Shown: piece by piece, positions 5,283-36,869 of the stretch
How the letters are laid out: each line of letters opens with the position of its first letter
Position numbering within the stretch: the stretch's first letter is position 1
Origin: an uncultured Rickettsiales bacterium
GTDB lineage: Bacteria > Myxococcota_A > UBA796 > UBA9615 > CAYRNR01
Direction: 5' to 3'
DNA length: 64,000 nt
Assembly: GCA_964639985.1 (NCBI GenBank)
Contig: CAZXHG010000008.1
Span: 2,116-66,115 of the forward strand
Program-made: the position numbers and the translations under genes
Notes under the pieces: model-generated
Database searches by the model: none
The model's input: the letters and a program-made list of their open reading frames with translations, nothing else
What the model was told of the DNA's origin: nothing

Positions 5283-7034
5283 ATGCCCGACGTCCCCCTC
5301 CGCAACGGCGTCCCCCAGTACACCCTGGAGCACTTCGAGCAGGACTTCGCCGACCGCCACCTTCTGCACGGCGTCCTCGGCAAGTGGGCCCAGGAGCGGC
5401 CCGAGGCGATCGCGATCACCAACGCCGACACGGGCGACCACATCTCGTGGGACCGGCTGGACCGCACCACCACCGCGTTCGCCCTGGCGTTGCTCGATCT
5501 GGGATTCCGCAAGGGGGACGTGTTCGTCACCTCGCTGCCGTTCCTCTCCGAGCACGTGTACCTGGCCTACGCCTGCTTCAAGATCGGCGTGGTGCTCGCC
5601 CCGCTGGACCTGCGGCTCAAGGGCCCGGAGGTGATCCGGTCGATCGAGCTGGTCGAGGCCAGGGGCTACGCCTTCCTCGGCCAGACCGAGCACGCGGACT
5701 TCCGCGAGCTGGGCCGGGCCGTCAAGAAGAACTGCCCGTCGGTCGAGCACTTCATCCAGTTCTCGCCCCCGGACCAGACCGTGATCCACGGCGCCATGTC
5801 GGCCAGCCGGTTCGCGGCGGGGGCCATCGAGCTGGGGACCGCGGCCATGACCACGCCCGGGACCTCGGACCTGGCCAAGCTGTTCCTCTTCGCCACCACG
5901 GCGGTGGAGGAGACCGACGGTGCGCTGGTGATCTTCACCACCGGCTCCACCGGCTACCCCAAGCCCGCGCTGCTGAGTCACCGGGCCATCACCTGCCAGA
6001 ACATGTGCCTGGGCGCGGCCTTTGGCATGGACGCGGACGGGGACCGCATGCTGGTCAACCTGCCGCCGTCCCACGTGGGGGGCATGACCGAGCAGCTGAT
6101 GACGCCGCTGTTCTGGGGCACACGCGCGGTGCTGCTGCACATCTTCGACCCGGAGAAGACCTTGCGCGCCATCGAGCAGCACCGGGTGACCTCGTTCGGC
6201 CAGATCCCGGCCCTGTTCGCCATGGAGTGGCGGCTGCCGGACTACGGGGATTTCGACCTGTCCAGCCTCAACTTCGCCCTGTACGGCGGCCAGCAGGTGA
6301 GCCGTCAGTTCCTCGACCAGCTCGCCGCCATGGCGCCGGGGTTCGGCACCGGGCTGGGCCTGACCGAGGCGGCCGGGTTCTGCACCTACACGCCGCTGGA
6401 CGGCAGCGTGGACGACATCCTCGCGGGCGTGGGCTTCGACATGCCCGTGTACCCGATGACGATCCGCGCGCCCATGAAGGGCGACGGTGGCGCGGGCGAC
6501 GTGCTGGCCGCCGGCGAGGTGGGCGACATCTGCTTCGAGGGGCCGCAGAACTTCCTGGGGTACGTCAACGACCCGGAGGCCACGGCCCGCGCCCTGTCCT
6601 CCGACGGCGTGCTGTACACCGGGGACATGGGCTACGTGGACGGCCAGGGGCTGCACTTCTCCGGCCGGGGCAAGCTGGTGATCAAGCCCAAGGGCTACCA
6701 GGTGTTCCCCGCCCAGGTGGAGGAACACTTCTGCGATCTGAGCGAGTCCGTGGCCGCCTGCGCGGTGGTCGGCGTGCAGCACGAGGTGTTCAGCGAGGCC
6801 ATCGTGGCCTACGTGGAGCCGAAGCCCGGCGCGTCGCCGGATCTGGCCGCGATGGCCGCGCACGCCCGCGGGCTGGCCGCGTACATGCGACCCTCCCACT
6901 ACGTGCTGCTGGAGCCGGCGGGCATGCCGCTCAACCGGGTGGCCAAGACCGATTACGTGGAACTGGGTAAGATGGCCCGGGCCGAGGTGGACCGGCTGCG
7001 CGAGCAGGGCGGCTGGGACCGCGGCCAGGAGTGA
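5283..7034 (+). CDS. AMP-dependent synthetase/ligase (acyl-CoA synthetase family).
   Basis: AMP-binding signature FTTGSTGYPK, 583 aa. An AGGAG RBS sits 8 nt upstream of the ATG. Confidence 0.9.
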   Translation: MPDVPLRNGVPQYTLEHFEQDFADRHLLHGVLGKWAQERPEAIAITNADTGDHISWDRLDRTTTAFALALLDLGFRKGDVFVTSLPFLSEHVYLAYACFKIGVVLAPLDLRLKGPEVIRSIELVEARGYAFLGQTEHADFRELGRAVKKNCPSVEHFIQFSPPDQTVIHGAMSASRFAAGAIELGTAAMTTPGTSDLAKLFLFATTAVEETDGALVIFTTGSTGYPKPALLSHRAITCQNMCLGAAFGMDADGDRMLVNLPPSHVGGMTEQLMTPLFWGTRAVLLHIFDPEKTLRAIEQHRVTSFGQIPALFAMEWRLPDYGDFDLSSLNFALYGGQQVSRQFLDQLAAMAPGFGTGLGLTEAAGFCTYTPLDGSVDDILAGVGFDMPVYPMTIRAPMKGDGGAGDVLAAGEVGDICFEGPQNFLGYVNDPEATARALSSDGVLYTGDMGYVDGQGLHFSGRGKLVIKPKGYQVFPAQVEEHFCDLSESVAACAVVGVQHEVFSEAIVAYVEPKPGASPDLAAMAAHARGLAAYMRPSHYVLLEPAGMPLNRVAKTDYVELGKMARAEVDRLREQGGWDRGQE

Positions 7035-19192: not shown

Positions 19193-19801
19193 TCACCAGG
19201 CGAACCCCACGGTGGCTCCGGCGGTCCGGCTCGCGGGGTCGGCCCAGGGGGTCACGAGCAGACCGTGCGGCTCGCTGCGCAGATGCCGGTGGGCGTAGCG
19301 CAGCAGCGCGATCCCGGCGGGCAGCGCGGCGACACCGAGGCCCCAGCAGATGGCGTACGGCGCGGCCCAGTCGTGCAGCGCCCCCTCACTGCTGGGGGAC
19401 GCCACGGCGGGCAGCAGCCACAGCCACGCCGTGGCCAGGGACAGCGCGCCGGTCCCGACCAGCGTCACGCCGTAGCCGGTGAGGACGCGGCGGCCCACGT
19501 CGCCTGAGCTCCAGCCCTGGCCGGCCTTCAGCCCGATCCCCCCCGCCAGGCCGGTCACCCCCAGCCCGATCAGCGCGGGGACCAGCGGGATCGTCGGGTG
19601 GGAGAGGTCCTGCCGGCCGGGTTCGATCAGGGCAGCCAGCATGACCAGACCGCCGGCCAGGGACACGCCGCCAGACACGCCCAGGGCGTGGGCTGGACCG
19701 TGATCGAGCGGGTCGGGAATCTCGGCTGCTACCGCCGGTCCTCCGAGGAGTACGGCCGCGACCGCCGCGGTCAGCACGGCGCGTATGGCCCGCGTGCTCA
19801 T
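19193..19801 (-). CDS. Hypothetical polytopic membrane protein (signal peptide plus ~4 transmembrane segments), translationally coupled to the upstream GGDEF sensor.
   Basis: Its ATG at 19801 overlaps the TGA of the 19798..22887 gene (ATGA). The translation MSTRAIRAVLTAAVAAVLLGGPAVA... is hydrophobic, Gly/Leu-rich and membrane-like. In the track it appears only as the tail of the artefactual 19193..21181 ORF. Confidence 0.55.
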   Translation of the reverse strand: MSTRAIRAVLTAAVAAVLLGGPAVAAEIPDPLDHGPAHALGVSGGVSLAGGLVMLAALIEPGRQDLSHPTIPLVPALIGLGVTGLAGGIGLKAGQGWSSGDVGRRVLTGYGVTLVGTGALSLATAWLWLLPAVASPSSEGALHDWAAPYAICWGLGVAALPAGIALLRYAHRHLRSEPHGLLVTPWADPASRTAGATVGFAW

Positions 19802-22800
19802 TCCTCGATGGCCAGGTAGTCCTTCTGCAGGGACCAGTCCAGGTCGGCCAGGCCACGCACGATCTGGTCCGGATCCTCGGGGAAGTTGTCGCCCGCGATC
19901 AGGTGCACGCAGCGGTTGCGACCATCGCGCTTGGCCTTGTACAGGCCCAGGTCGGCCACGGTGATCACCTGCTCCATGGTCAGCTCCACGGCCGGGTTGT
20001 TGCTGAACGGGAACGCGGTGTAGCCCACCGAGCAGGTCTTCTTGATCACACCGCCGGCGGGCAGATCGAAGTCCGCCCCGGCAACGGCGCTGCGCAAGCG
20101 CTCGGCGAACTCGTCGAGGAAGTCGGCCCGGGTGTGGGGCAGCACCAGCAGGAACTCCTCCCCCCCCCAGCGCACCACGATGTCCTCCACGCGCACGCAG
20201 TCCCGCAGCAGGTCGGCGAAGTGCCGGAGCACCGCGTCGCCCGCGTCGTGGCCGTGGGTGTCGTTGACCTCCTTGAAGTGGTCGATGTCGACCATGAACA
20301 GGCCGATCACGTCCCAGTCCTTGCGCGCTCGACGGTCCACGCTGCCGCCGCTGGCGCGCGTCCGCTGGCGGGCCAGGTCCTCCATCACCGCGGCCACGGT
20401 CTCGAACAGGAAGCGGCGGTTGCGCAGCCCGGTCAGCGGGTCGCGCAGGGACAGCTCGGTGAGCTCCTCGGTCAGCTTTCTCAGGTCGCGCGTGCGGGAC
20501 TCGACCGCGTGCTCGAGCTCCGTGGCCCGGCGCGTGAGCTGCCGCAGGCGTACACCGACCAGCGATGCCACCAGCCCGGACAGGACGAGCGCGGCCAGCA
20601 CGTAGAACCACGGGGTCTGGTAGACGTGCCGCCGGATACGGAAGGTGAAACCGGCCGGTTCCTGGGCCCAGACGCCGTCGTTGTTGCAGGCCCACAGGCG
20701 GAACGTGTAGTCCCCGTGCGGAATGGATGCGTACATCGCCTCCCGCTGTACCACCTCGTCGGAGGGCTCGGCGTCGGTCGGGACGAGCTGGTACCGGAAC
20801 CGTACCTTTCCGGCCGCGGTCAGGCTCAGCGCCGCGTACTGGATGGAGAGGCGCTTGCGCCCTGGCGGTAGAACCAGCTCGCGGGTGTGGTCCACCAGCC
20901 TGCCGTCGATCAGCACCTCCTCGATGCGTACCGGCGGGGCGAGGGTGTTGCGGGTGATGTTGGCCGGGTCGATGGCCGCGAATCCGGCCACCGTGGGGAA
21001 CCACAGCCGGCCGTCGGAGGTGCGCGTTCCCGAAGGCTGGCCGCCGCCGTTGCACTCGTCGCCGGGCATGCCGTCGCCGCGGCCGTAGGCCGTGTGCTCG
21101 ATCCGGTCGACCCTGCCGGCCACGTAGTCGTCGATGGCCGCCTTGGTCACCTGATACACGCCGCGGTTGCAGCTCAGCCACAGGCTGCCCCGCTCGTCGT
21201 CCACGACCCGGAAGATGGTGTCGTCGAACAGGCCGTGCTCGGTGGTGAAGGCGCGGGTCTCACCGCCCCTGTGTCGAAGCAGGCCGCCCAGGGTGCCGAA
21301 CCACAGGGTGCCGTCGTCGTCCTCGTCGATGGAGTAGACCAGCTTCTGGTTGTTGTTCAGCTCGATCCGGGGGGTGAACGGGATGAACTCGCCGTACTGG
21401 TAGCGGGCCAGCCCGCCGCCGCGCGTGCCGATCCACAGGGCGCCTTCGGCGTCGAAGTGCAGCGCCTTGACGATGTCCGAGGGGAGACCGTCCCGCGTGG
21501 TGTAGGTCGTGAAGGCGCCGTCCACCAGGTGACTCAGGCCGCCCTCGGTGCCGACCCACAGGCTGCCGTCGGGATCGGACACGATGGCGTAGACCTGGTC
21601 GTCGGCCAGGTCGTTGGCCGTGGTCCACGTGGTCCAGCGGCCGTCGTGCAACCGTCGCAGGCCGCCGCCGTACAGGCCGGTCCACAGGATCCCGTCCGGC
21701 TCCTCGTGGATCGCCATCAGGGAGTCGCCGAGCGCCTGGGCACGCCCCGGGAAGTCCACGAACTGCCCTTCCCGCAGCAGGTTGAGCCCCTCCTCCGTGC
21801 CCAGCCACACACCGTCGCGCCCCTGCAGCACGGCCCAGCTGCCGTCGTGGGTCAGGCCCTCCTGGCTGGTGTAGCTGGTGAACTTCGCGTCCCGGAGCCG
21901 GTTGAGCCCGCCGCCGAGGGTGCCCAGCCACAGGCTGCCCTCCGCGTCCTCGTAGATCGCCTTGACGTTGTCGTGCCGCAGGCCCTGGGACATGGTCAGG
22001 CAGTGGAAGTGGTCTCCATCCTTCCGGCAGATGCCGCCGTCGTAGGTACCGACCCACAGGTTGCCGTCGCCGTCCTCGAGGATCGACTCGATGAACATCG
22101 AGCTGAGTCCCTGGTCGAGGCCGTGGCCGGTGAGTTCTCCCTCGTGTGCGGCGTACAGCCCCCCGCCGCGGGTGCCGATCCAGACCGCGCCGTCGCGGGT
22201 CTGGTAGAGCGCCGATATCTGCGGATCGCTCAGCGCGTCGTTGTGCGGATGGGCCGTGAACGAACCGTCACTGTACAGACACACCCCCCCGCCCCGCGTT
22301 CCTATCCAGAGGTTGCCGTCCGCGTCCGCGAGCAGCGACTCCACGTCGTTCTCGGTCAGCCCGTCCGCCACGCCGAAGGAGGTCACCCGGTCGCCGTCGA
22401 TGCGGTCGAGGCCCTCGTCCGTACCGACCCAGATGGCGCCATCCACAGGTCCAGCCAGGGCCTGCACCAGGTCGGACGACAGGCCCTGTTCCCGCGTGAA
22501 CGAGCTGAACTCGCCGCCGGCGAAACGCACGAGCCCGCCGCCGTTGGTGCCGGCCCACAGCGCGTCGGACTCCCCCTCGAGCAGGACGCTGACGTAGTTG
22601 TTGGTGATCGCGGCGGTGTTGCGGTTGTCGTACACCACGAACCGTGCGCCATCGAACCGCACCAGCCCCTCCTGGGTGGCCAGCCAGAGGTACCCGTCCG
22701 CGGTCTGTACGATGGAGTGCACCGACACCTGGGGGAGGCCGTCCTCGGGGAGCCAGTACTCGTGGTGGTACTGCGTGACCGCCTTGGCCGGATCCAGTGC

Positions 22801-22887
22801 GTGGGCCACACCCGGGCCCAGGAAGGCCAGGGCCATGAGCGACGTGGCGACGTGGGGCATCAGCGCCCTGCGGCTGTGGCTGGTCAT
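19798..22887 (-). CDS. Sensor diguanylate cyclase: periplasmic two-component-regulator propeller repeats + Y_Y_Y domain + transmembrane segment + GGDEF domain.
   Basis: Signal peptide, then repeated ...G.W.GT..GL... propeller motifs, then one TM helix (WFYVLAALVLSGLVASLVGV), then a GGDEF domain with RDPLTGLRNRR and a GGEEF active site. Confidence 0.9.
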   Translation of the reverse strand: MTSHSRRALMPHVATSLMALAFLGPGVAHALDPAKAVTQYHHEYWLPEDGLPQVSVHSIVQTADGYLWLATQEGLVRFDGARFVVYDNRNTAAITNNYVSVLLEGESDALWAGTNGGGLVRFAGGEFSSFTREQGLSSDLVQALAGPVDGAIWVGTDEGLDRIDGDRVTSFGVADGLTENDVESLLADADGNLWIGTRGGGVCLYSDGSFTAHPHNDALSDPQISALYQTRDGAVWIGTRGGGLYAAHEGELTGHGLDQGLSSMFIESILEDGDGNLWVGTYDGGICRKDGDHFHCLTMSQGLRHDNVKAIYEDAEGSLWLGTLGGGLNRLRDAKFTSYTSQEGLTHDGSWAVLQGRDGVWLGTEEGLNLLREGQFVDFPGRAQALGDSLMAIHEEPDGILWTGLYGGGLRRLHDGRWTTWTTANDLADDQVYAIVSDPDGSLWVGTEGGLSHLVDGAFTTYTTRDGLPSDIVKALHFDAEGALWIGTRGGGLARYQYGEFIPFTPRIELNNNQKLVYSIDEDDDGTLWFGTLGGLLRHRGGETRAFTTEHGLFDDTIFRVVDDERGSLWLSCNRGVYQVTKAAIDDYVAGRVDRIEHTAYGRGDGMPGDECNGGGQPSGTRTSDGRLWFPTVAGFAAIDPANITRNTLAPPVRIEEVLIDGRLVDHTRELVLPPGRKRLSIQYAALSLTAAGKVRFRYQLVPTDAEPSDEVVQREAMYASIPHGDYTFRLWACNNDGVWAQEPAGFTFRIRRHVYQTPWFYVLAALVLSGLVASLVGVRLRQLTRRATELEHAVESRTRDLRKLTEELTELSLRDPLTGLRNRRFLFETVAAVMEDLARQRTRASGGSVDRRARKDWDVIGLFMVDIDHFKEVNDTHGHDAGDAVLRHFADLLRDCVRVEDIVVRWGGEEFLLVLPHTRADFLDEFAERLRSAVAGADFDLPAGGVIKKTCSVGYTAFPFSNNPAVELTMEQVITVADLGLYKAKRDGRNRCVHLIAGDNFPEDPDQIVRGLADLDWSLQKDYLAIEE

Positions 22888-24093: not shown

Positions 24094-25416
24094 TCAGCTC
24101 CCGAACGTCTCCATGAACGCATCCAGCCGCGCCTCGGCCTGGGCCCCCGTGTAGGCGCGCGGATCGGCGTGGTCCGCGTCCAGAACCAGCGCGCGGATCC
24201 CGTCCGCGGCCAGGCGGTCACGCAGCTCCAGCTGCCCCACCGAGTAGGGCTTGCAGGAGCGGTCGGAGTGGAACAGCACGCCGTCGCAGTCGTACTCGTC
24301 GACCATGTCCCGGATCAGCTTCAGGCGGTGGGCCAGGCCCCGGTTGAGGATGACCATCGAGTAGGAGTTGGCCAGCCCCAGCCACGGATCGGTGGTGTCC
24401 ATCAGGTCCGCGGTCTCGGCCCACGCGTTGGTGTACGTGGCCGCCACCATCGCGAACCCGTTCTCGGCCAGGCCCCTGGCCAGACCACGCATCTCGAACC
24501 ACACCGGCAGGTTGTCCCACAGCAGCCGGTGGCGCTCGTCCACGACCCCGCCGATGCCGTCGGCGGCCCGCTGGCGCAGCTCGTCCCGCAGCACCCGGTA
24601 GTAGGCGTTGCACTGCTCGCTGCCGCGCAGGGTCACGATCGGGATCATGTGGATGAAGCCGTCGAACGCGGTCCAGGGCGCGGGCCGGGCCTTGTTGGTC
24701 TCCAGGCACTCGCGCCACAGCAGGCACCCCTGCTGGGCCAGCTCCACGGCGTGCTTGAACGCGTCCTCGTCGAACTTCCTCTCCGCCACCTTCGCGGCAA
24801 CGTCTGCCAGGTTGCGGAGCTGGTCCTGCACGTAGGCCAGGTGGGTTGGGTCCGCCTGGTCCGCGTAGACCTGGGGCGTGTCCACGATCACCAGGGGTAC
24901 GTCGAGGTGCCGCGCCAGCTCCCGGTACCAGTAGAACACCGTCTCGCAGATGTTGGTGCAGGTCACCAGCAGGTCGGGGCGGGGGATGCGGCCGATGGGC
25001 GTGCTGCCCGACAGCAACGAGCCGAAGTCGATGCGCGCGTAACTGCACAGGTCCTGGCTGTAGGCCGCCTCCTCGGCCGTGGCGATGAGCTCGGGCGAGG
25101 TGTGGCCCGCGCCGCAGATGGCGCCGTGGTTCTCCGGGTAGAACAGGTGGTAGCCCAGGGGCCGCAGCACCTCGATCGGCGCGCCGGACGTGACCCACGC
25201 CACCGGTACGGCGCCGTCCGCGTAGCGGCCCGAGAAGTAGTGGGCCGTGCTCATCTCCTTGAGCAGCTTCATGGTCTGCGGTGCCGGTCCCAGCGGGGTG
25301 GGCCGGGGCTTGCGGTTGCGGCGCCGCCACCAGGAGTTCGCCCGGTCGGCCTTGGCCAGGCCCGGCCCGACCAGGCCGCGCATCAGCTCGTACTGCGCCC
25401 TGCGGAACACGCTCAC
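24094..25416 (-). CDS. 2-hydroxyacyl-CoA dehydratase family subunit (HgdB/HadC/BcrB-like, PF06050).
   Basis: Conserved Cys cluster context (LLVTCTNICETVFYWY) and overall similarity to the D-component family. The start overlaps the stop of the next gene, so the two form an operon. Confidence 0.7.
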   Translation of the reverse strand: MSVFRRAQYELMRGLVGPGLAKADRANSWWRRRNRKPRPTPLGPAPQTMKLLKEMSTAHYFSGRYADGAVPVAWVTSGAPIEVLRPLGYHLFYPENHGAICGAGHTSPELIATAEEAAYSQDLCSYARIDFGSLLSGSTPIGRIPRPDLLVTCTNICETVFYWYRELARHLDVPLVIVDTPQVYADQADPTHLAYVQDQLRNLADVAAKVAERKFDEDAFKHAVELAQQGCLLWRECLETNKARPAPWTAFDGFIHMIPIVTLRGSEQCNAYYRVLRDELRQRAADGIGGVVDERHRLLWDNLPVWFEMRGLARGLAENGFAMVAATYTNAWAETADLMDTTDPWLGLANSYSMVILNRGLAHRLKLIRDMVDEYDCDGVLFHSDRSCKPYSVGQLELRDRLAADGIRALVLDADHADPRAYTGAQAEARLDAFMETFGS

Positions 25417-26486
25417 AGCACCATCTCCAGGAACGCCTCGAGGCGGGTGGTGATCGCACCGGGTAGCTCCCGCTCCACCTCGGTGTCGAGGAACAGCGCC
25501 GGGATGCCCTCCTCCTCCATCCGTGCCTTGAGCGCGGGCACGTCGAACAGCTCGGGTTCGCAGAACCGCACGTTGTGCACCAGCAGGCCCGCGGCCTCGC
25601 TGCCGCGGGCGAGCCGGACCAGCTGGTCGGCCCGCCGCTGCTGCTCGGTGTTGGTGGTGGAGCAGGGGGGGCGGGCGGCCATGCGGCGTGCGGTCAGCTC
25701 CAGGGGCGGTGCAGTCACGCCCGGGTCGAGCTGGGTGATGCGACGCCCGACCGCGGCGTAGTCCTCGGCCACGATCACGGCGCCCGCGTCCTCCAGCACG
25801 TCCAGCAGGGCCATGGGCTCGGGCACGATGCCGGACACCAGCAGGCCCGGGCCGGTGCGGGGGGCGCCCTCGCCGCGGCGGGCCAGGGCGGCCTCGAGCT
25901 CGGCCAGGTGCTCGGCCGCGGGCACGAAGCTGTCACGCCGCAGCAGCTCCATCAGCTCCCGCTCGGTCAGGGGCAGCTCGCGTCGGTGGCGTCGCAGCTG
26001 GCGCTGGGCGGCCTCGATGCGCTTGCGCACCTCGATCGCCTCGGCCAGACGATCCTCGTCGGGAGCCCTGTCGAAGGCCTCGGCCAGATCGCGCCACAGC
26101 CGCTCCACCTCGGTGCGCAGGAACGCGTCGCCGTAGGTGTCCGAGCGGGGGAGGTGCAGGTGGAACACGGGCCGGTCCCATTCGCCCATGTCCGGCACCA
26201 TCGAGGCCAGGCCCATCATCGAGTCGCAGGTGTTGGGGAACAGGATCCCGTCCACCCCGTCGAGCCCGCCCGCGTCCACGAATGCCATGGCGTTGCGCAC
26301 CAGCGAGCACACGTACGGCTGGATCCGTTCGCTCGGCCCGTCGGGCAGCGGCCCTGGCGGCCCCCACAGCTCGATGCCGAGGATGTCGAGCGACTCCAGC
26401 ACCTCGCGCGGATAGTGGATCGGGAGGACGGCCAGGGTCGGGAGTCCCTGCCGCCGGTGTGCATCGAGGGCGTCCTGGCGTGTCAT
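25413..26486 (-). CDS. 2-hydroxyacyl-CoA dehydratase family subunit (HgdA/HadB-like partner subunit).
   Basis: Same family signature (ILFPNTCDSMMGLASMV). 357 aa. Translationally coupled with 24094..25416. Confidence 0.65.
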   Translation of the reverse strand: MTRQDALDAHRRQGLPTLAVLPIHYPREVLESLDILGIELWGPPGPLPDGPSERIQPYVCSLVRNAMAFVDAGGLDGVDGILFPNTCDSMMGLASMVPDMGEWDRPVFHLHLPRSDTYGDAFLRTEVERLWRDLAEAFDRAPDEDRLAEAIEVRKRIEAAQRQLRRHRRELPLTERELMELLRRDSFVPAAEHLAELEAALARRGEGAPRTGPGLLVSGIVPEPMALLDVLEDAGAVIVAEDYAAVGRRITQLDPGVTAPPLELTARRMAARPPCSTTNTEQQRRADQLVRLARGSEAAGLLVHNVRFCEPELFDVPALKARMEEEGIPALFLDTEVERELPGAITTRLEAFLEMVL

Positions 26487-26541: not shown

Positions 26542-28866
26542 TCAGCGGAGGCGGTGCTCCAGGACCATCAACGCAGAGCGCGCGGCAGCGCGCACGCGAC
26601 GGGATGGGTGCGTGAGCAGCGCCTCGAGGGCGGCCTGGACCTCGACGTCCCCCACGTACCCGGCCACCCGGGTCACCGCGCCGAGGTAGGCGTCCTGGGC
26701 CTCGGGATCCTGCAGCAACGGTGGCAGGGCGCGTGCCACGTCCTCCTCCGTCCAGCCGCGGATCTCCCGGTGGATCGCTTCGCGGGAAGCCTGCTCCTCG
26801 GCCTCCCACCGTTCGTTGTCCAGCAGAACCAGCGTGATGCGGGCTTCGAGCTGCCGGCGAGCATCGGTTGCGTCCCGGGATTGACGCCCCAGCTCACGAA
26901 CCACGGCGAGCGCACCGTGGCGCGCGAGCGAGTAGGCAGCAGCCGAGCGCACGGCCACGTCCCCGTCAGCCGCGATGCTCGCCTCGAGAGCCTCGTCCAC
27001 GCCTGCGGCTCGGCTCATACCGAGCAGGAAGGCGGCGATGCTGCGCAGCGCGGCACTCGGATGGTCCGACAGCCATGACTCGAGCCGTTCCCGGATGCCG
27101 TTCTCGTCCACCAGTCCGGCAGCGAGACGCGTGGTCACGTCGTTGAACCAGAACTGCTCGATCTCACTACCGTCTCCACGCCGGATGCCGCGGAAGATGC
27201 GTCTCAACAGCAGGTAGTCCTGGAACGTGCGGTGCACGAAGCGGTAGTTGCCCTGGCCGTCCCACTCCAGGAACAGACTGCTGCCCATGGCCTGATCCGG
27301 CCTGCTCGGGCGGTTGCCCACCTCGGCCGCCGAGCTCAGCAGATCGGCGAGCCCGGCCGGAAGCTGGCGGATGTTGATCTGTGGCTGGTCCATCTCCCAG
27401 AGCTGGTAGGCCATCTCCTCCATCAGTCCGATCAGGTCCGCCTTGGGTACACAGAATCGGACCGCCTCCTGTTGCGCCCAACGATCGATGGCCTGGTCCA
27501 GTAACGAGGTCAGGGTCCGGGGCCAGCTGTGGGCCGCGCCGAGGCCGGACAGGAACGGCGTCATCAGCCGCAGTGCCAGCGGGAAGCAGGCGAGGTCCCA
27601 CAGGTCGAGATCGTCGATACGCGCCAGCGTGCCGCGCCAGCCACGTGCGCTGTGGCCGCGGAGGTACGACTCGATACGGTGGCGGTCGAACTCCTCCAGC
27701 CGCGCCACCTTGACCAGGGGCAGCTCCAGCGCACCCTCCTCGACGTCCCAGCGGCCTGGCGGCACGAGCATCTCCGTGATCTCCCGAGCGTCGCGGAAGA
27801 TGCGTGTCCGCGCTGTCATCATGATGCGGCTGCCGCAGTCGAGCAGCCCTGCGATCGCGCGCAGGTTTCGCCGGACGACGAACGGATCCAGGCGCACGGT
27901 CATCTCGTCGAAGCCGTCGAGGATCAGCACGAAGCGGCCCTCGGCCAGCATCCGCTCCAGCGCGCCCACTCCCGAGATGTACGCGCCGTGGCGGAAGTAC
28001 AGCTCCTTGAACACCAGCTGCTTGAGGTCGTTGACGTAAGGGAATTCCCACAGGGGCACCAGCAGCGGGACCGGCTGAATCCCGGGGGACTCCAGGTGCC
28101 GGCGGCCCAGGGTCGCGGCCAGCCGGCGACAGACCGTGGACTTGCCCACGCCCGGTTCTCCGAGCAGCACCAGGTGCGAGATCGAGTCGTTCGTCAACCA
28201 GCGATCCAGGTATTCGTCGAGCGCATGGATCTCGCTCTCGTCCACCGGCCGGCAGGCGGGCTCGACGAAGCGAAGCCCGAGGGCATCCCAGCGGTCGACC
28301 TGCTCCTGGGCGTAGCTTCGCAGGTCGACCAGCTGGTTGAGCAGTTCCTGGCGACGGACGAGGGTCACTCCGCGTCGTTCGGCGTAGTCCTGGACGTCCG
28401 GTCCGGCGAGGACCTCGGTCACCACCATCGCCACGTGGTGATGAGAACGATCGACGAAGTCCTGCACCTGCTGCAGATCCGCGACCACGGCGGCGTTGCG
28501 GCACAGCACCACCACGCGCATCTCCAACGGGCCGGTCCGCAAGCCCGCGACCACGTCGGCCGAGAACGAGTGGCCCAGCGTGTCGCGAACCGATTCGCGA
28601 AGCATCACGTCGTATCCGAGCAGCCGTAGCAGGTCGGCGACCCACGTGGCCATGTCCGACTCCGCTTCCAGGCTGGCCAGGGGAACGTGGAGGGTCCGGG
28701 CCAGCTGTTCCAGTACATCGGGTTTGAGGGTGCGCGCGCCCGATTCGAGTCGGCCCAGCTGTTGCCGCGTGACGCCGATGCCGCCGGCGAGCTGTTCGAG
28801 GCTGAGTCCCTTGCTCTTGCGGATCTCCCGGACCCGTTGACCGATCCGTCGCGAACGCTCGTCCAT
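26542..28866 (-). CDS. STAND-class NACHT NTPase with an N-terminal HTH (XRE/Cro-C1 type), a possible Mrr-like restriction-endonuclease-fold domain, and C-terminal HEAT (PBS-lyase-like) repeats.
   Basis: The HTH is IGQRVREIRKSKGLSLEQLAGGIGVTRQQLGRLESG. The Mrr-like segment is WVADLLRLLGYDVMLRES...VVVLCRN (catalytic Lys not evident). The NACHT P-loop is LVLLGEPGVGKST and Walker B is FVLILDGFDEM. C-terminal HEAT-like repeats include DVAVRSAAAYSLARHG and SRRVRAAARSALMVL. Confidence 0.85.
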   Translation of the reverse strand: MDERSRRIGQRVREIRKSKGLSLEQLAGGIGVTRQQLGRLESGARTLKPDVLEQLARTLHVPLASLEAESDMATWVADLLRLLGYDVMLRESVRDTLGHSFSADVVAGLRTGPLEMRVVVLCRNAAVVADLQQVQDFVDRSHHHVAMVVTEVLAGPDVQDYAERRGVTLVRRQELLNQLVDLRSYAQEQVDRWDALGLRFVEPACRPVDESEIHALDEYLDRWLTNDSISHLVLLGEPGVGKSTVCRRLAATLGRRHLESPGIQPVPLLVPLWEFPYVNDLKQLVFKELYFRHGAYISGVGALERMLAEGRFVLILDGFDEMTVRLDPFVVRRNLRAIAGLLDCGSRIMMTARTRIFRDAREITEMLVPPGRWDVEEGALELPLVKVARLEEFDRHRIESYLRGHSARGWRGTLARIDDLDLWDLACFPLALRLMTPFLSGLGAAHSWPRTLTSLLDQAIDRWAQQEAVRFCVPKADLIGLMEEMAYQLWEMDQPQINIRQLPAGLADLLSSAAEVGNRPSRPDQAMGSSLFLEWDGQGNYRFVHRTFQDYLLLRRIFRGIRRGDGSEIEQFWFNDVTTRLAAGLVDENGIRERLESWLSDHPSAALRSIAAFLLGMSRAAGVDEALEASIAADGDVAVRSAAAYSLARHGALAVVRELGRQSRDATDARRQLEARITLVLLDNERWEAEEQASREAIHREIRGWTEEDVARALPPLLQDPEAQDAYLGAVTRVAGYVGDVEVQAALEALLTHPSRRVRAAARSALMVLEHRLR

Positions 28867-29205
28867 CGCCTTCTCCTGTCAGTGCTCGCCGAGCTTACCA
28901 CGGGAGGCGAGTACCAAAGTGGTGCATATGTCGTCAGCATCTACGCTGAATGACACCAAAACGGCACATATCTGATATTTCTGGTTTTTCGGACTGTCTG
29001 GTCTTTCGCGCTTGGTGCCGGACTGGGGCGGCGATAACTCGTTGAAATACAAGACGTTATCTTGACTCTCCCTTGCCGCTTCAACGGTGTCCAGTCTCGG
29101 CCTGGTGGAGTGTAACCAAAATGGTTCGTTTGGATCTTGACCGGTTGGCCGCGGAGGGTGTAGAGCGGTTCCAGAAACAGCCAGGAAGGGAAACGGGAGG
29201 TCCGG

Positions 29206-31005
29206 ATGGGCAGGGGGCGCCGTGTGGCGGGGGGGGCGGGATTGCTGGGGGTGCGCGCGCTCGGGTCGGTGCATGGGGGTCAGGGCGGCGACGGGGGGGG
29301 AGGTGGTTGCGACTGCCTGTGCGATGGCGCGGGCTCGAGTTGCGATCTCGATGCTGTCGTCGTGTTGAACGAGGTGATGGTGGATCCGGACGGTGCGGAC
29401 GGTGGGCTGGAGTGGGTCGAGCTGTTCAATGCGGCCCCTTCTCCGGCCGATCTCTCCGGCTGGGAGATCCACTGGTTCAAGTCGGATCCGGAGGAGGAGT
29501 CGGGCAAGGTGATCCTGCCCGGAGGCACGGTTCTGCACCCCGGGCGTTTCCTGTTGCTCGGTGGTGAACTGCTCGTGCCGGCGCCCGGAGTGGTCGCGGA
29601 GCTGGCCATCGGCAACGGCGACCGGGGCGACGGGGTCCACCTCTACGACTGCGAGATGGGGCTGGTCGACGCGCTGGTGTACAGCAAGGACACGGATCCC
29701 GTGACCGGCGAGCCGGTGAACATCGACTGCATCATCGACGAGTCGGGGCAGTGCGCGACCTCGGTGGTGCTCAAGCCGGGACAGGGGAGCTCGCTCTCTC
29801 GCGTCGAGGACGGCCTGGACACGGACCGCAGCGGCGACGACTTCTGTGGCTGCGAGTCGCCCACGCCAGGCGCGTCCAACGACACGTGCTGCGTGTCGCC
29901 GCCGACATGTCCGGTGCAGGCCACATTGATGCTGTCGGAGCTGATGCCCGATCCGTTCGCAGACCAGGACGCGACCGAGTACGTGGAGGTCTTCAACGCG
30001 GGAACCGAAGCGGTTCCCATGGCCTGCGTGGTGGTCTACGACTCCGGCGCGGAGGTGGGTGCCGGGCGGATGGCCGAGGAGTGTGGGTGGAGCATCCCGG
30101 TGGACGGCTACGGCTTGTTCTCCGCCGACGCGGACACCCTGGCCGGGCAGGTCGCCGCCGAGGTCTGCCAGCTCTCCCTCGGCCTCACCAATACCGGGGA
30201 GGTCTGGGGCGTCGGTTTCGTCGATGTCGATGGGAACGAATCCATCTCGGAGAGCCTGGACTGCGAGTCGGAGGCGTGTGGGATCGTCCAGGGAGTCGCG
30301 ATCAACCGGGCTGTTGCCGAGCTGGACGAGGGCATCGTCGGCGATGGCACGTGGTGCGACGCCACGTCGGTGTTCCACAGCGACGACGACGGCGACCATC
30401 ACGGGACACCCGGCGCGGTGAACGACGCCTGTCCGGAGATCGAGGAGGTCTGGCTGGACATCGGCGACGCGGTGCTGACCGAGCTGATGCCGCAGCAGCC
30501 TGCCTCGCTGTCCGCCTCGAATGCGGAGTTCGTCGAGGCACTGAACGTGTCCGGCCAGGACATCCCGCTGGCCTGGCTGTCGGTGGTCGACGGCGCCCTG
30601 TCCCGGCAGCTGACCTGCGACGAGGGCGTCGAGACCTGGTTCGACGGCGAGCTGCTGCTGGTGGCGGGCAGCCGTTCGCAAGCCGACAACGGCGGCATCG
30701 ACGTGTCCTGCGAGGCCGGGTTCGCGCTGAACGATGGGGGCGACTCGATCGGCCTGGAGTACGTCAACCCCGACGACTCGACCACCCTGCTGGACAGCGT
30801 CACCTATGACGAGGACGGGTGGTCGTATCGCCCGGGCGTGTCCTTCCAGCTGTCCGCGGTCCACGGATGCGAGTCGATGGAGTCCAACGACGACCCGGGG
30901 TGCTGGTGCGCGTCGTCGATCGGGTACGGCACCCCGGCCGGGGACGACGAGCAGCTCGGCACCCCGGGTGAGCCCAACCTGGTCTGCGAGGGTGGCCCGG
31001 AGTGA
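29206..31005 (+). CDS. Secreted protein with three lamin-tail domains (LTD) and Cys-rich spacers.
   Basis: Three LTD signatures: VVLNEVMVDPDG...EWVELFNAAPSPADLSGWEI, LMLSELMPDPF...EYVEVFNAGTEAVPMA and AVLTELMPQQP...EFVEALNVSGQDIPLAWL. The N-terminal leader is weak, so the start could lie elsewhere. Confidence 0.75.
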   Translation: MGRGRRVAGGAGLLGVRALGSVHGGQGGDGGGGGCDCLCDGAGSSCDLDAVVVLNEVMVDPDGADGGLEWVELFNAAPSPADLSGWEIHWFKSDPEEESGKVILPGGTVLHPGRFLLLGGELLVPAPGVVAELAIGNGDRGDGVHLYDCEMGLVDALVYSKDTDPVTGEPVNIDCIIDESGQCATSVVLKPGQGSSLSRVEDGLDTDRSGDDFCGCESPTPGASNDTCCVSPPTCPVQATLMLSELMPDPFADQDATEYVEVFNAGTEAVPMACVVVYDSGAEVGAGRMAEECGWSIPVDGYGLFSADADTLAGQVAAEVCQLSLGLTNTGEVWGVGFVDVDGNESISESLDCESEACGIVQGVAINRAVAELDEGIVGDGTWCDATSVFHSDDDGDHHGTPGAVNDACPEIEEVWLDIGDAVLTELMPQQPASLSASNAEFVEALNVSGQDIPLAWLSVVDGALSRQLTCDEGVETWFDGELLLVAGSRSQADNGGIDVSCEAGFALNDGGDSIGLEYVNPDDSTTLLDSVTYDEDGWSYRPGVSFQLSAVHGCESMESNDDPGCWCASSIGYGTPAGDDEQLGTPGEPNLVCEGGPE

Positions 31006-32966
31006 TCGGCTGCGCGTCCCGGCCGCCACGATCGGCGTGTCTGCTGCCGCTGGTGGCGCTGGTGCCGCTGCTGACCGCCTTCGACTACGGCACGCCGATC
31101 CACGTGCGCACCGAGGAGGATCTCTACCAGCTCGAGCTCGACGGCGAGATCGACGTCGACCAGCGGGACACGCTGCTGCAGCTGCTGGACGAGCCGCTCG
31201 ACCTGGCTGTGGCCAGCTGGGACGAACTGCAGCTGCTCCCCGGGGTCACCGCGGAGTTCGCCGATGCGGTGATCGCGGCCCGGGAGCGCTCGCCCTTGCT
31301 CCGCGCGTCCGATGTGGAGCCGGTCGTGGGGACCGGTGTGTGGCTCCTGTGCCGTCCTTTGGTGCCCGTGGGCGGGCGGGGCGGACCGGCGGGGGTCGGG
31401 GGGCACGTGGCGCTGCGCGCGCTGGAGCAGCTGCAGGACTCACGCTTCCCGGTGGTCTACCTCAAGGGCCGGACCTGGGTGGGGGACTGGCTGGACGTGG
31501 GTGTGCTGGTGGCCGAGCAGGAGGATCTGGTCGGGGTAGAATATGGCGGCTCCACCGTGATCGCGGACGACTTCCGTCCGCGGGTGGCCCTGGAGCGCGC
31601 CCACGCGCTGGTCGAACGGCGCTCCTGGGCGGTGATCGCAGGGCACTACCAGGCTGGTTTCGGGCAGGGGCTGGTGTTCGACGTCACGGACCGGGTGCGA
31701 CCCCATGGATTCCGCCCTGACCTGCGGCTGAACGAGGACTACGAGGACCGTGACAGCTACAGTGTATCCCGGCGGCTGCTGGGACTGGCCGGCCGCGCCG
31801 TCATCGACCTGCACAACGGCGACCAGCTCGACCTGGTCCTGTTCGGCTCCGTCGCCCCCCACGACCTGTACTTCGGCGACCTCGATCCCAACGACCTCAA
31901 GGTCACCAGCGGGGAGGAGGTCACACACCCGACCTTCCCGGCCGTGTACCGCGAGGATCTCCTGGGGCTCGGCGCGGCCTGGCGCTGGACGAGCCGCAGC
32001 CACGTGGGCGTGACCGGGTGGTTCGGCCGTGCGGTCAAGGCCTACGAGTTCGACTTCACCGGCACGCCCATTCCCAATCGACCGCTCTACGGCGCGATCG
32101 GCGCGGACGTGGCCGTGCAGGTCCGCCAGTCGGACCTGTTCGCCGAGGTGGCCGTGACCGACTCCGGCGGCGTGGGCACGCGCGCGGAGTGGCTGGTCAC
32201 GCCGCCAGGGGCCGAGATCAGCATGGCCGCGCGCTACTACGGTGCGGGGTTCGACAATCCCCACTCCCGGGGCCGCTCCCAGCCGGACGAGTTCGGCCGC
32301 ACCGAGGACGAGGGGGAGGTCCTGCCCGGGGGCAAGCGTGACCGGGACGAGGTCGGACCACAGCTGCGGTTGGTCGCCGCGCCGCTGGCCTGGCTCCACC
32401 TCGTGGGCAAGGGTGACCTGTGGGCCGCGCCCTCGACCGGGATCGTCAACCTGTACGCCGAGGGTCGCGCGGACCTGGATCCACTGCCCTGGCTCGGCGC
32501 CGACCTGTTCGTCAGCACGCGGGACAAGGACCTGACCGAGGGCGGCCGCGAGTTCACCTACTCCGACGGGGACGAGGACACCGAGAAGGGGCACCGCGTA
32601 GCCCTGGGTGCAGGCCTGCGGCTGTCGCCACTGGAGTCGTTCACGTTGCAGACGTTCGTCAAGGATGCCTACGAGGACAGCGACGACCACGACGACGCCT
32701 ACCTGCACACCGTGTACACCTGGACGCGGCTGCGGTGGGCCCCGTTCGAGTGGCTGGCATTGACCGCGCGGTTGAAGGTACTGCAGGAGGATCTCGCGGA
32801 TCCCGACTCCGGCGAGCACTACCTCGACCTGTACGGGCAGGTGGCCCTCCGGCTGCCTGGGCGGGTGCTGCTGCTGGCGCGCTACGACGTGCGGCGGGAC
32901 CTCGGCGAGCCCGCGGAGCCCGAGACGATCCACAAGCTCAAGGCCTGTGCGGAGGTGAGGTTCTGA
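31002..32966 (+). CDS. Putative outer-membrane protein with an N-terminal ComEA-like helix-hairpin-helix DNA-binding motif and a C-terminal beta-barrel-type terminus.
   Basis: The GTG start overlaps the stop of the LTD gene. Signal-like CLLPLVALVPLLTAF. HhH segment WDELQLLPGVTAEFADAVIAARERSPLLRASDVEPVVGTGVWLL. The protein ends ...KACAEVRF (C-terminal Phe, OMP-like). Confidence 0.6.
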   Translation: MIGCASRPPRSACLLPLVALVPLLTAFDYGTPIHVRTEEDLYQLELDGEIDVDQRDTLLQLLDEPLDLAVASWDELQLLPGVTAEFADAVIAARERSPLLRASDVEPVVGTGVWLLCRPLVPVGGRGGPAGVGGHVALRALEQLQDSRFPVVYLKGRTWVGDWLDVGVLVAEQEDLVGVEYGGSTVIADDFRPRVALERAHALVERRSWAVIAGHYQAGFGQGLVFDVTDRVRPHGFRPDLRLNEDYEDRDSYSVSRRLLGLAGRAVIDLHNGDQLDLVLFGSVAPHDLYFGDLDPNDLKVTSGEEVTHPTFPAVYREDLLGLGAAWRWTSRSHVGVTGWFGRAVKAYEFDFTGTPIPNRPLYGAIGADVAVQVRQSDLFAEVAVTDSGGVGTRAEWLVTPPGAEISMAARYYGAGFDNPHSRGRSQPDEFGRTEDEGEVLPGGKRDRDEVGPQLRLVAAPLAWLHLVGKGDLWAAPSTGIVNLYAEGRADLDPLPWLGADLFVSTRDKDLTEGGREFTYSDGDEDTEKGHRVALGAGLRLSPLESFTLQTFVKDAYEDSDDHDDAYLHTVYTWTRLRWAPFEWLALTARLKVLQEDLADPDSGEHYLDLYGQVALRLPGRVLLLARYDVRRDLGEPAEPETIHKLKACAEVRF

Positions 32967-33493
32967 TGAGAGCGAGATTTCGGGTGGGGCGGGTGGCGCC
33001 GCTCCTGGCTGCGTGGTCGGTCGTGGGGTGCATGGACTGCACCCGCGAGGTGGGCGAGCCCTGCCACGACCGCGTGGAGGCCTCCGTCGCCCGCGTGGTG
33101 GACGGCGACACGTTCGACGTGGAGACCCCTGTGGTCCTGGGCGAAGCGGGCGAGATCGAGCGGTTCCGACTGCTCTGTCTGGATACCCCGGAGACCGGCG
33201 AGTGCCACCACGGCGAGGCGACCGAAGCCCTGCGAGAGCGGATCGAGGGGCGGACCGTGACGCTGGCGTTCGCCGAGGAGTGCATCGGCGAATACGGGCG
33301 TGGACTGGTGTACGTGGTCGTGGACGGCAGCGTGGTCAACGTGGACATGGCGCGGGCTGGCCACGGCCGCCTGATCCACGAGCCGTACGACGACCACGCG
33401 TGCTGCGTGGACGTGGATGCCGGCGAGCAGGTCGCCCACGCCGACCAGCTGGGGGGCTGGGGCACGTGTACGGGGTCTCCCTGGTCGCTCTGA
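32966..33493 (+). CDS. Staphylococcal-nuclease-like (thermonuclease/SNase) lipoprotein.
   Basis: ATG overlaps the upstream stop (TGATG) after a GGAGGTGAGG RBS. Lipobox AAWSVVGC. SNase motifs are VVDGDTFDV and RFRLLCLDTPE (Ca-binding and catalytic Asp/Arg/Glu context). Confidence 0.8.
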   Translation: MRARFRVGRVAPLLAAWSVVGCMDCTREVGEPCHDRVEASVARVVDGDTFDVETPVVLGEAGEIERFRLLCLDTPETGECHHGEATEALRERIEGRTVTLAFAEECIGEYGRGLVYVVVDGSVVNVDMARAGHGRLIHEPYDDHACCVDVDAGEQVAHADQLGGWGTCTGSPWSL

Positions 33494-33497
33494 TGCA

Positions 33498-33836
33498 TTG
33501 GCCACGGACGGCCAGCGGATCCACTTCGAGCGGGAGCGCGCCGGCCTGGGCTGCGCCTGCTACAGCCGCCAGCTCGTGGTGTACGAGTTCCACGCCCAGG
33601 ACTCGCCGTTCCGCGACGACGTGCTGCTCGCCCCGCCACCCAACTACAGCCTGTTCCACGTGGACCGCGACCCCGACGGCCACGCCCGCGACTACCGCCT
33701 CGACCTGCGCCGCCTCGCCAGCTTCGCCAACCCGTCCATCTACCGCGGCGGCATCGCCGTGGCCCACGCCCGCTCCCTGGTCGTGGATCGCCTCAGCGGC
33801 CGGATCAACCGGCGCGAGCTACGGGTAGCCCGGTAG
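33498..33836 (+). CDS. Possible small hypothetical protein downstream of the nuclease gene; start uncertain.
   Basis: Reading frame with protein-like composition (...IHFERERAGLGCACYSRQLVVYEFHAQDSPFRDDVLL...IYRGGIAVAHARSLVVDRLSG...). TTG at 33498 is the first start after the nuclease stop. The track ORF 33417..33836 would overlap the nuclease by 77 nt. Confidence 0.3.
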   Translation: MATDGQRIHFERERAGLGCACYSRQLVVYEFHAQDSPFRDDVLLAPPPNYSLFHVDRDPDGHARDYRLDLRRLASFANPSIYRGGIAVAHARSLVVDRLSGRINRRELRVAR

Positions 33837-36839: not shown

Positions 36840-36869
36840 TCCCTGGATGACCGCAGCTGGAGCAAGCCC

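Follow-up and report, generated by a model that had tools for sequence, protein, structure and literature searches.

The antiphage protein bNACHT25, in which an Mrr-like restriction endonuclease (REase) fold precedes a NACHT NTPase, defends Escherichia coli against phage; its REase effector is required for toxicity, and the D48A substitution rescues a hyperactive His allele (bioRxiv 10.1101/2022.07.19.500537). In the same work, Kibby et al. catalogued winged helix-turn-helix (wHTH) DNA-binding N-termini on bacterial NACHT proteins and speculated on a transcriptional response, none of these proteins having been characterised, and CIITA was cited as a NACHT protein acting in transcription (bioRxiv 10.1101/2022.07.19.500537). 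Transcription factors do exist among the signal transduction ATPases with numerous domains (STAND), in whose tree defence and non-defence clades interleave (PMC13581612; bioRxiv 10.64898/2026.09.02.748808), and one of them, AfsR, is described as a transcription factor of the nucleotide-binding leucine-rich repeat (NLR) type with a His-Asp activation switch (bioRxiv 10.64898/2026.09.02.748808). Here, we analysed a 64,000-nucleotide stretch of contig CAZXHG010000008.1 from an uncultured bacterium (the window), where a single open reading frame (ORF) on the minus strand, at 26542-28866, runs from ATG to stop and encodes a 774-aa protein combining a helix-turn-helix (HTH), a degenerate REase domain, a NACHT NTPase and HEAT repeats (ORF and translation, Pfam). 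We consider it likely that this protein, referred to below as the regulator, is a NACHT-clade STAND transcription factor that is autoregulated and controls an operon for capture and degradation of extracellular DNA, rather than a phage sensor.

The regulator gene shows a third-position GC content (GC3) of 0.86 and the codon bias usual for genes of this window of about 70% GC, and a GGAG-type purine-rich ribosome-binding site lies 5' of its ATG. When the whole protein was searched against Pfam, HTH_3 matched residues 12-64 (53.4 bits), NACHT (PF05729) residues 232-403 (39.9 bits versus a gathering cutoff of 26.7) and HEAT_2 residues 594-679 (31.1 bits versus 27.7). A match to Mrr_cat (PF04471) over residues 71-177 (29.9 bits versus a cutoff of 21, E = 6.4e-7, profile positions 8-113 of 115) was obtained from a scan of residues 66-231 alone and is not among the Pfam families listed for the whole protein (25 of 30). 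The XRE/Cro-type HTH (residues 8-66; 28669-28845, minus strand) was delimited by HTH_3, PDB profiles, Foldseek and alignment. Its PDB profile matches are the 434 repressor, C.AhdI and SinR, and in the structural model it superposes on C.AhdI with a root mean square deviation (rmsd) of 0.9 Å at 38% identity (Foldseek). Across family members whose overall identity ranges from 38% to 100%, the recognition helix GVTRQQxGRLExGxRTLKPD is nearly invariant (alignment A1).

The Mrr-like domain of the PD-(D/E)xK fold (residues 71-177; 28336-28656, minus strand; Mrr_cat and BLASTP), whose active site is degenerate, is followed by the NACHT core (residues 232-403; 27658-28173, minus strand), assigned from Pfam, motifs and structure matches. 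Both nucleotide-binding motifs of the core are intact and invariant across the family in alignment A1: the Walker A motif GEPGVGKS (residues 236-243) and the Walker B/NACHT signature LILDGFDE (residues 314-321), which reads D-G-h-D-E. A D[GAS]hDE-type motif was present in 159 of 160 aligned relatives, the remaining one reading LDGFNE. Located 3' of the core, a winged-helix histidine, H545 in RFVHRTFQDYL (nt 27232-27234), is likewise invariant in alignment A1, and is probably the counterpart of NLRC4 H443. The C-terminus is a HEAT-repeat solenoid (residues ~576-773; 26548-27141, minus strand; HEAT_2, alphaRep/HEAT PDB profiles and model), which matches alphaRep/HEAT PDB profiles down to 1e-13, is modelled as helical repeats with predicted local distance difference test (pLDDT) values mostly above 85, and is presumed to be a ligand-sensing or autoinhibitory domain. 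The entire regulator was modelled with AlphaFold2 (AF2) from ten homologues at a mean pLDDT of 78; among PDB structures the model comes closest to NLRP2 (9l4l) and NAIP5 (7rav), and its C-terminus matches HEAT/alphaRep repeats. The NTPase thus belongs to the NACHT clade by profile (above cutoff), by motif (Walker A GxxxxGK[ST] and D[GAS]hDE signature) and by structure (NLR-like arrangement of nucleotide-binding, helical and winged-helix domains with the conserved His). The initial annotation had described a tripartite protein with an HTH and an Mrr-like segment, a NACHT NTPase with intact Walker A and B motifs and HEAT repeats; Pfam, motifs and the AlphaFold model agree with this layout, and the Mrr-like resemblance holds at the level of the fold.

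The family is small. Ten full-length homologues (38-100% identity) were found among 5.8 billion clusters, and an exhaustive HMMER search yielded only eight 50%-identity clusters of full-length architecture, extending to 1e-75 in E value. No further match appears before 1e-43, where a large REase-NACHT superfamily begins (1333 proteins at E < 1e-10); many of its matches start near query residue 66-80 and have the Mrr-like and NACHT regions in common with the regulator, without the HTH. About 16 clusters carry the full HTH/Mrr-like/NACHT/HEAT architecture. In a scan of reference genomes with the family alignment, only NACHT matches at the Walker A level were detected (Chloroflexota, cyanobacteria and others) and no true family member. 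The metagenome-assembled genomes that bear homologues are labelled Pseudomonadota or Deltaproteobacteria, and the window host is a high-GC diderm from metagenomes.

All 160 available sequences, comprising the 16 family clusters and 144 others, were aligned to the family profile. The window protein keeps D104, and its (E/Q)xK position reads L121-C122-R123; BLASTP pairs its VVVLCRN with VAVECKA of an HTH-less relative, P0011. The canonical D...E-x-K motif ("hhhECK") is present in 57 of the 144 relatives outside the family versus none of the 16 family clusters, which show L, I, T, A, R, Q or M at the E column and R, H, T or L at the K column; one of them, P0016, is also without the Asp. Only four proteins outside the 16 clusters possess an XRE HTH, and none of the three with an alignable REase region keeps the triad. 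Because the HTH-bearing families (16 clusters and three sisters) are devoid of the triad, the HTH appears to have been gained hand in hand with decay of the catalytic site. By sequence, then, the regulator is a descendant of an antiphage-type REase-NACHT lineage that gained an HTH and lost its nuclease site. The catalytic Lys that the initial annotation had been unable to locate is indeed replaced, and its suspicion of an inactive nuclease gains ground, since the motif is degenerate in every family member: the Mrr-like nuclease is probably inactive. Given that the toxicity of bNACHT25 needs its REase effector, the regulator family would be without a working effector by that yardstick. The three sister proteins (P0064, P0107 and P0147) combine an HTH, a degenerate REase domain, NACHT and HEAT at 27-29% full-length identity, and may regulate other operons.

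Genomic contexts were compared for ten family members (30-100% identity) and for one locus reached via a partner protein, giving 11 loci. A gene for a lamin-tail-domain (LTD) protein adjoins the regulator gene in all 11, usually in a divergent operon; in L010, gene order is rearranged and the regulator is co-directional with the operon, and the association is kept. Other recurrent partners are a staphylococcal-nuclease-fold (SNase) protein of ~175 aa (8 of the 11 loci), a metallo-beta-lactamase-fold (MBL) protein of ~310-370 aa (7 of 11) and a protein of ~650 aa with a helix-hairpin-helix (HhH) motif (6 of 11). L013 and the contig reached via P0186, which are related loci, encode an Exo_endo_phos (EEP) nuclease, one locus encodes an Endonuclease_1 (EndA-type) enzyme, and an SNase and/or a ComEC-like MBL protein occurs in every regulator locus except the short contig L033. 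Lipoprotein-type signals are found in almost every orthologue of the LTD, SNase, EEP and EndA-type proteins, and signal peptides in the MBL and HhH proteins.

In the window, the divergent operon lies on the plus strand and begins with the gene for a 599-aa protein with one or more LTDs (29206-31005; LTD, 72 bits), a multi-LTD lipoprotein in the family at large. Six of seven LTD orthologues have a clear lipobox, that of L013 being atypical. The 5' end of the window LTD gene (29206-29330) has two G8 homopolymer runs and encodes a Gly-rich N-terminus, MGRGRRVAGGAGLLGVRALG...GGGGGC, whose hydrophobicity falls well short of that of the clear lipoprotein signals in most orthologues. A search of the reading frames for a frameshift that would bring back a signal peptide found none; the sequence may reflect phase variation, an assembly error or a Tat-like signal.

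The second gene (31002-32966, plus strand) encodes a protein of 654 aa in which a signal peptide, a ComEA-like HhH and a large outer-membrane beta-barrel ending in -RF are combined, as assigned from model, Foldseek and HHH_3; -RF or -KF is the common ending of the HhH proteins. HHH_3 is weak in the window copy, scores 24.6 bits in the L007 orthologue and is a precomputed assignment for most homologues. The AF2 model (pLDDT 79, predicted TM-score [pTM] 0.77) consists of an N-terminal helical HhH domain followed by ~24 beta-strands, and Foldseek placed only outer-membrane barrels at the top: FimD/PapC ushers, the Mtr complex, TonB-dependent receptors, AlgE and porins. The third gene (32966-33493, plus strand) encodes a 175-aa thermonuclease-like lipoprotein of the SNase fold (Pfam SNase, lipobox VVGC). 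The precomputed Pfam SNase annotation is weak for this copy and stronger in orthologues, and the NCBIfam matches are to thermonuclease NucI (37 bits) and to EcnA (34 bits), both under their cutoffs. At the operon end, a 112-aa ORF (33498-33836, plus strand) without a family match is of uncertain membership; it was not seen in the other regulator loci, where a ComEC-like MBL hydrolase often takes its place. LTD domains are found together with known extracellular nucleases, among them ExeM (PMC6085458) and those of marine and sediment bacteria that forage for DNA (PMC8289736). The simplest role for the LTD/HhH-barrel/SNase module would be capture, cleavage and outer-membrane passage of extracellular DNA or its fragments.

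The intergenic DNA flanking the regulator contains 15-bp dyads of the GAACCA-N3-TGGTTC type, with variants GTGCCA/TGGCAC and GCGCCA/TGGCGC in which the half-sites co-vary. The candidate operator consensus is G(A/C/T)(A/G)CCA-N3-TGG(T/C)N(C/A), and in the alignment of nine loci (alignment A2) its CCA and TGG are invariant. With the search pattern GNRCCANNNTGGYNM, 17 sites were counted in 2497 bp of flanking intergenic DNA from the nine loci. The other 159,361 bp contained 4, so that the sites are enriched 271-fold beside the regulator. Over the whole window, 11 strand-wise matches were obtained versus 1.5 expected, including 28911-28925 and 29113-29127. The palindrome usually occurs twice per locus, the two copies being 91-202 bp apart; a regulator-side copy is present in eight of the nine loci, and L014 has the operon-side copy only. 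In L033, the most distant member (30% identity), the half-sites GAACCA/TGGCAC appear twice in the intergenic region with longer spacers of 5-6 nt. The imperfect palindromes of the window escaped an inverted-repeat tool run with seed 6. Perfect GC-rich palindromes of the operator type were also seen away from the regulator, GCGCCACACTGGCGC and GCGCCACTATGGCGC, at 38932-38946 (inside a predicted helicase ORF) and 51469-51483; they resemble the GCGCCA/TGGCGC variants of L011 and L004 and could be chance occurrences or extra sites.

Each of the two window sites is placed at a promoter-like element. Candidate operator site 1 (29113-29127, no strand assigned; pattern search and alignment A2), which reads TAACCAAAATGGTTC and on the minus strand GAACCATTTTGGTTA, stops 9 nt short of the -35 of the divergent LTD operon. 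The promoter-like element of that operon (29137-29164, plus strand; alignment A2) consists of TTGACC, 16 nt and TGTAGA, and is followed by a GGAGG ribosome-binding site and the ATG at 29206. The operon-proximal alignment has a fixed order: operator, T-tract, TTGACC, 16-18 nt, TGTAGA, GGAGG in most loci, and ATG, with TATCGA in place of TGTAGA in L011 and L004. Five loci place the operator 7-9 nt from the -35, and the other four place it 18-19 nt away. The two spacings differ by one turn of the helix, as would suit an activator that is bound upstream of the promoter and depends on the helical face.

Candidate operator site 2 (28911-28925, no strand assigned; pattern search), reading GCACCACTTTGGTAC on the minus strand, belongs to the regulator's own promoter and ends 10 nt upstream of the extended -10 of the gene, TGGTAAGCT, an element of the TGnTAnnnT type at 28892-28900 on the minus strand. 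Of the nine intergenic sequences, seven (window, L005, L014, L007, L008, L013 and L010) show TGnTAnnnT, as recognised by eye, 5' of the regulator gene. The second site overlaps the -35 region in the window clade and is positioned just downstream of the extended -10 in the clade of 50-53% identity, and either position would imply autoregulation of the regulator gene. An autoregulatory HTH had been raised in the initial annotation, and the candidate operators lend it support, one being at the promoter of the regulator gene and the other at the divergent operon. A sigma-70 consensus scan reported neither the TTGACC/TGTAGA nor the TGnTAnnnT elements, its only hit here being a non-conserved ATGACA-18-GATATT at 28950-28979. 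A reading of the motif as a sigma-54 (TGGCAC) or extracytoplasmic function (ECF) sigma (GGAAC) element was rejected by its dyad symmetry, its co-varying half-sites and the lack of a second promoter element.

When metagenomes were scanned with the HhH-barrel alignment, 78 loci (L035-L112) were obtained, which revealed that the triad of LTD, SNase (in many loci) and HhH-barrel is widespread, at 25-50% identity. Of the 78, a single locus, on the L007 contig, has both the NACHT regulator and the operators. The region from -500 to +150 was searched for the operator pattern in 40 non-redundant loci that lack the regulator and have 400 bp or more of sequence 5' of the module (26 kb in all), and no match was found. 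Since the palindrome is absent from all 40, the operator travels with the regulator and not with the module. In the regulator-less and well-resolved L034, a TTGCCG...TGTAGA promoter (~6250-6280) is kept and there is no palindrome. The non-canonical element, TTGACC or TTGCCG, 16-17 nt and TGTAGA, precedes the LTD module even where the regulator is missing, which suggests a lineage-specific or alternative-sigma promoter. As judged from these sequences, the module is common and evidently non-defence, and the regulator was added to it in particular lineages only. No description of the LTD-SNase-HhH-barrel triad, or of a STAND regulator for it, was found in the searchable literature, and the triad may by itself be an uncharacterised outer-membrane system for DNA capture and uptake.

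Taken together, the regulator combines an HTH, a STAND NTPase and a repeat sensor, and candidate sites co-occur computationally at its target promoters, as expected for a STAND transcription factor. In the mechanism that we propose, dimers of the regulator would bind the palindromes via the HTH, and the protein would be held off in a closed, ADP-bound state, with which the invariant winged-helix His545 is consistent. A ligand sensed by the HEAT repeats, and possibly also by the dead REase domain, would lift autoinhibition, whereupon ATP binding at the intact NACHT site could drive oligomerisation. The oligomer upstream of the -35 would then activate the LTD/HhH-barrel/SNase operon, and binding at the second site would limit the regulator's own synthesis. 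The module would scavenge or take up extracellular DNA, and the inducer may be a DNA breakdown product, comparable to maltotriose for MalT.

MalT of E. coli controls an outer-membrane channel and a periplasmic polymer-degrading enzyme. Like MalT, GutR of Bacillus subtilis and the AfsR/SARP-NB-ARC-TPR proteins of Streptomyces, the regulator joins a DNA-binding domain to a STAND NTPase and a repeat sensor and has sites upstream of its target promoter. Those proteins differ in that they belong to the MalT/MNS or NB-ARC (AP-ATPase) clades and employ LuxR- or SARP/OmpR-type DNA-binding domains, whereas the regulator has a NACHT core, an XRE/Cro HTH and a vestigial nuclease. By profile, motif and structure the NTPase falls in the NACHT clade and not in the MalT/MNS or NB-ARC NTPase clades, and the likeness to MalT and AfsR is, by analogy, one of mechanism and not of family membership. 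CIITA and NLRC5 are NACHT-clade proteins whose output is transcription rather than cell death; here, too, the likeness is by analogy only, there being no homology to the regulator outside the NACHT module, and CIITA acts via an enhanceosome without binding DNA directly. For the HTH itself, the controller proteins C.AhdI and C.BclI are the closest structures (rmsd 0.9 Å, 27-38% identity), and they also use short palindromic operators at their own promoters. They differ in being proteins of ~70-80 aa with adjacent twin operators that control an endonuclease gene, whereas the HTH of the regulator is one domain of a 774-aa ATPase. On the side of the operon, ExeM, NucH, Xds and the marine DNA-foraging sets likewise combine LTD domains with secreted nucleases (PMC6085458; PMC8289736), but in the regulator loci the LTD, the nuclease and the HhH-bearing barrel are separate proteins of a conserved triad.

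Several points weigh against a regulator of extracellular-DNA use. The operator pattern was derived from the same loci in which its enrichment was counted, these loci are phylogenetically related so that the 17 sites are not independent events, and the regulator-less controls are mostly from more distant lineages. That the regulator binds the palindrome is something we infer from co-occurrence alone, and the choice of an activator over a repressor follows only from the position of the site upstream of the -35. The consensus promoter scan did not report the putative -10, whose sequence, TGTAGA, departs from the canonical one. Besides, the window LTD protein has no convincing signal peptide, its N-terminus being Gly-rich and RR-containing, and the Arg at the catalytic Lys position in most family members makes residual or altered nuclease chemistry conceivable. 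Lastly, nutrition, competence and matrix remodelling are all candidate roles for the LTD/HhH-barrel/SNase module.

Four other explanations were considered. The one that fares best, which we nonetheless hold to be unlikely, is an immune-type sensor with a transcriptional answer, in which a phage or stress cue would lead to production of exported nucleases acting on DNA of lysed kin, periplasmic foreign DNA or an extracellular-DNA matrix. The operators and the synteny support a transcriptional output, the MBL partners weakly resemble the Avs1a and LmuA MBL models, and the SNase weakly matches the PADLOC candidate model "SNc+LTD". However, ComEC/Rec2, through its C-terminal MBL domain, is a far better fit for the MBL partner (111.6 bits) than Avs1a is (58.9 bits versus a cutoff of 420), the exported products would be unable to reach replicating phage DNA, and no association with defence islands was seen. 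Moreover, the module occurs in 78 loci almost always without the sensor, which suggests a housekeeping or nutritional role.

A competence regulator has still less in its favour and is, in our estimate, improbable. The HhH-barrel would then be an outer-membrane entry port for DNA, and the ComEC-like MBL protein and the SNase would process the incoming DNA; a ComEA-type HHH_3 on the barrel and the similarity to the C-terminal MBL domain of ComEC are indeed parts of competence machineries. Against this, no pilus, secretin, full-length ComEC, DprA or ComF genes were seen in the regulator loci. The two or three predicted exported nucleases that the loci variously carry (SNase with MBL, plus EEP in two and an adjacent EndA-type gene in one) would degrade DNA rather than preserve it, and the experimentally studied LTD-bearing proteins, such as ExeM, are degradative extracellular nucleases (PMC6085458).

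The initial annotation had taken the gene for a self-contained antiphage sensor of the bNACHT/Avs kind, in which the HEAT repeats would sense a phage protein, NACHT would oligomerise, the Mrr-like nuclease would cut DNA in abortive infection and the HTH would serve autoregulation only. We now regard this as very improbable. There is true homology to REase-NACHT proteins, many of them with an intact D..ExK, among which the Mrr-like bNACHT25 is antiphage; the ATPase motifs are intact, the C-terminal sensor is of the repeat type, and the operator at the regulator's own promoter is compatible with autoregulation. Like bNACHT25-type proteins, which we compared by published description and not by the sequence of bNACHT25, the regulator has an Mrr-like fold directly N-terminal to a NACHT with D[GAS]hDE, a winged-helix His and a repeat C-terminus, and its sequence relatives start at E = 1e-43. 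It differs in the additional XRE HTH, the missing catalytic E and K, the lack of defence islands, and the conserved operators and synteny with exported genes. Against an antiphage sensor, none of the 16 family clusters keeps the catalytic E or K, P0016 has lost D104 as well, and the second operator, at the promoter of a conserved exported-nuclease operon, would be left unexplained. Avs/AVAST proteins (Gao et al.) also have a STAND NTPase and a repeat sensor, some of them with Mrr-like nucleases and Avs1 with an MBL partner; by contrast, the regulator matches no Avs model and has a NACHT rather than an Avs-type NTPase, and its MBL partner is exported and ComEC-like.

Searches of defence models point the same way. 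With PADLOC, the regulator matched models on its HTH (HTH_VI, RmrA, CapH, controller proteins) or its P-loop (mad8, PtuA, PDC-M51B, VakA) only, plus a weak match to LeoA in the HEAT region (residues 589-708, E = 0.0044). In NCBIfam, the sole antiphage NACHT/Avs-type match was EruA, on the P-loop only and at 34 bits versus a cutoff of 1000, the rest being antitoxin or repressor models matched by the HTH only; no Avs model was among the PADLOC or NCBIfam matches at E <= 1. A PADLOC scan of the neighbours found no defence gene beside the window regulator beyond the generic SNase match to a candidate model, the generic MBL defence-model matches having come from the L007 partner scanned alongside. 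The genes around the window regulator are ordinary chromosomal ones (a GGDEF sensor, FG-GAP/ASPIC, an arylsulfotransferase, an ABC ATPase and a DEAD/DUF3516 helicase), and the window has no tRNA and its neighbourhood no integrase or other mobile-element mark. No recognisable defence system appears in the neighbour annotations of the 11 regulator loci, one transposase lying ~7 kb off in L007. Because phage DNA is intracellular, the exported DNases are not suited as abortive-infection effectors. In view of the degenerate nuclease motif, the lack of PADLOC/NCBIfam membership, and the non-defence neighbours and synteny, the assignment as an antiphage sensor is not supported. What stands of the comparison with bNACHT/Avs is the homology to the REase-NACHT lineage that includes bNACHT25; the function probably does not carry over. 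Likewise, an absence of nuclease-fold similarity, named beforehand as telling against defence, was not observed, but a conserved synteny unrelated to defence islands, named together with it, was.

Least probable of all is that the palindromes are promoter elements or sites of another factor and the NACHT protein an orphan STAND ATPase with a generic HTH nearby: regulator binding to the palindrome is indeed only deduced, and the substrings TGGCAC and GGAAC superficially resemble sigma-54 -24 and ECF -35 elements, but perfect dyad symmetry and co-varying half-sites fit a dimeric HTH protein and not a sigma element, no TTGC is found at sigma-54 spacing, the sites follow the regulator through the L010 rearrangement and are absent in 40 of 40 regulator-less loci, and the invariant recognition helix parallels the invariant CCA/TGG core.

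STAND/NLR proteins are read almost reflexively as immune. The regulator family, read as a transcription factor of an extracellular-DNA operon, suggests a recent switch from an antiphage lineage to gene regulation, in which an XRE HTH was gained, the nuclease site was lost and operators were acquired at a target operon, and that the nuclease-NACHT-repeat architecture alone over-predicts defence function. A bolder version, to which we give only tentative credence, is that an antiphage-type NLR was domesticated into a sequence-specific transcription factor, as a bacterial counterpart of CIITA/NLRC5, that its dead REase domain became a sensor of DNA or oligonucleotides, and that it switches on an undescribed machine of the outer membrane, made of LTD lipoprotein, SNase and HhH-gated beta-barrel, for capturing, cutting and importing extracellular DNA. 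If true, a domesticated NLR would represent an immune-to-metabolic switch in STAND proteins, together with a "DNA utilisation locus" comparable to the mal regulon. The family would offer a compact system for studying how an NLR switch is rewired and for finding the ligand of a HEAT-repeat bacterial NACHT protein. The LTD/SNase/HhH-barrel module is a candidate route of extracellular-DNA foraging in uncultured marine and sediment bacteria, an activity of importance in the cycling of phosphorus and nitrogen (PMC8289736).

Downstream of the regulator on the minus strand, two adjacent genes of the HGD-D (2-hydroxyglutaryl-CoA dehydratase D-component) family are located at 25413-26486 and 24094-25416. 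The 55-bp gap noted earlier between the regulator and a same-strand dehydratase gene was confirmed, the product belonging to the 2-hydroxyacyl-CoA dehydratase family (HGD-D). No terminator was detected in this gap, and read-through is conceivable in the window genome. The precomputed annotation of 20 kb around the regulator contains no activator ATPase of the BcrAD/HgdC type. The HGD-D genes were dropped as partners of the regulator, being present only in the window genome and in none of the other loci. Beyond them, ~3.7 kb downstream of the regulator, a 1029-aa Reg_prop beta-propeller/Y_Y_Y/GGDEF protein is encoded at 19798-22887 (minus strand), a gene that is not conserved in the other loci. 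On the other side of the regulator, at a distance of ~8 kb, the gene at ~36840-39425 (plus strand) codes for a DUF3516-bearing helicase of the DEAD/Suv3-like type. The same type of helicase is found in L033 (4641-6239, minus strand), next to the regulator save for one 160-aa gene in between, and its recurrence may reflect shared neighbourhood ancestry or a functional link.

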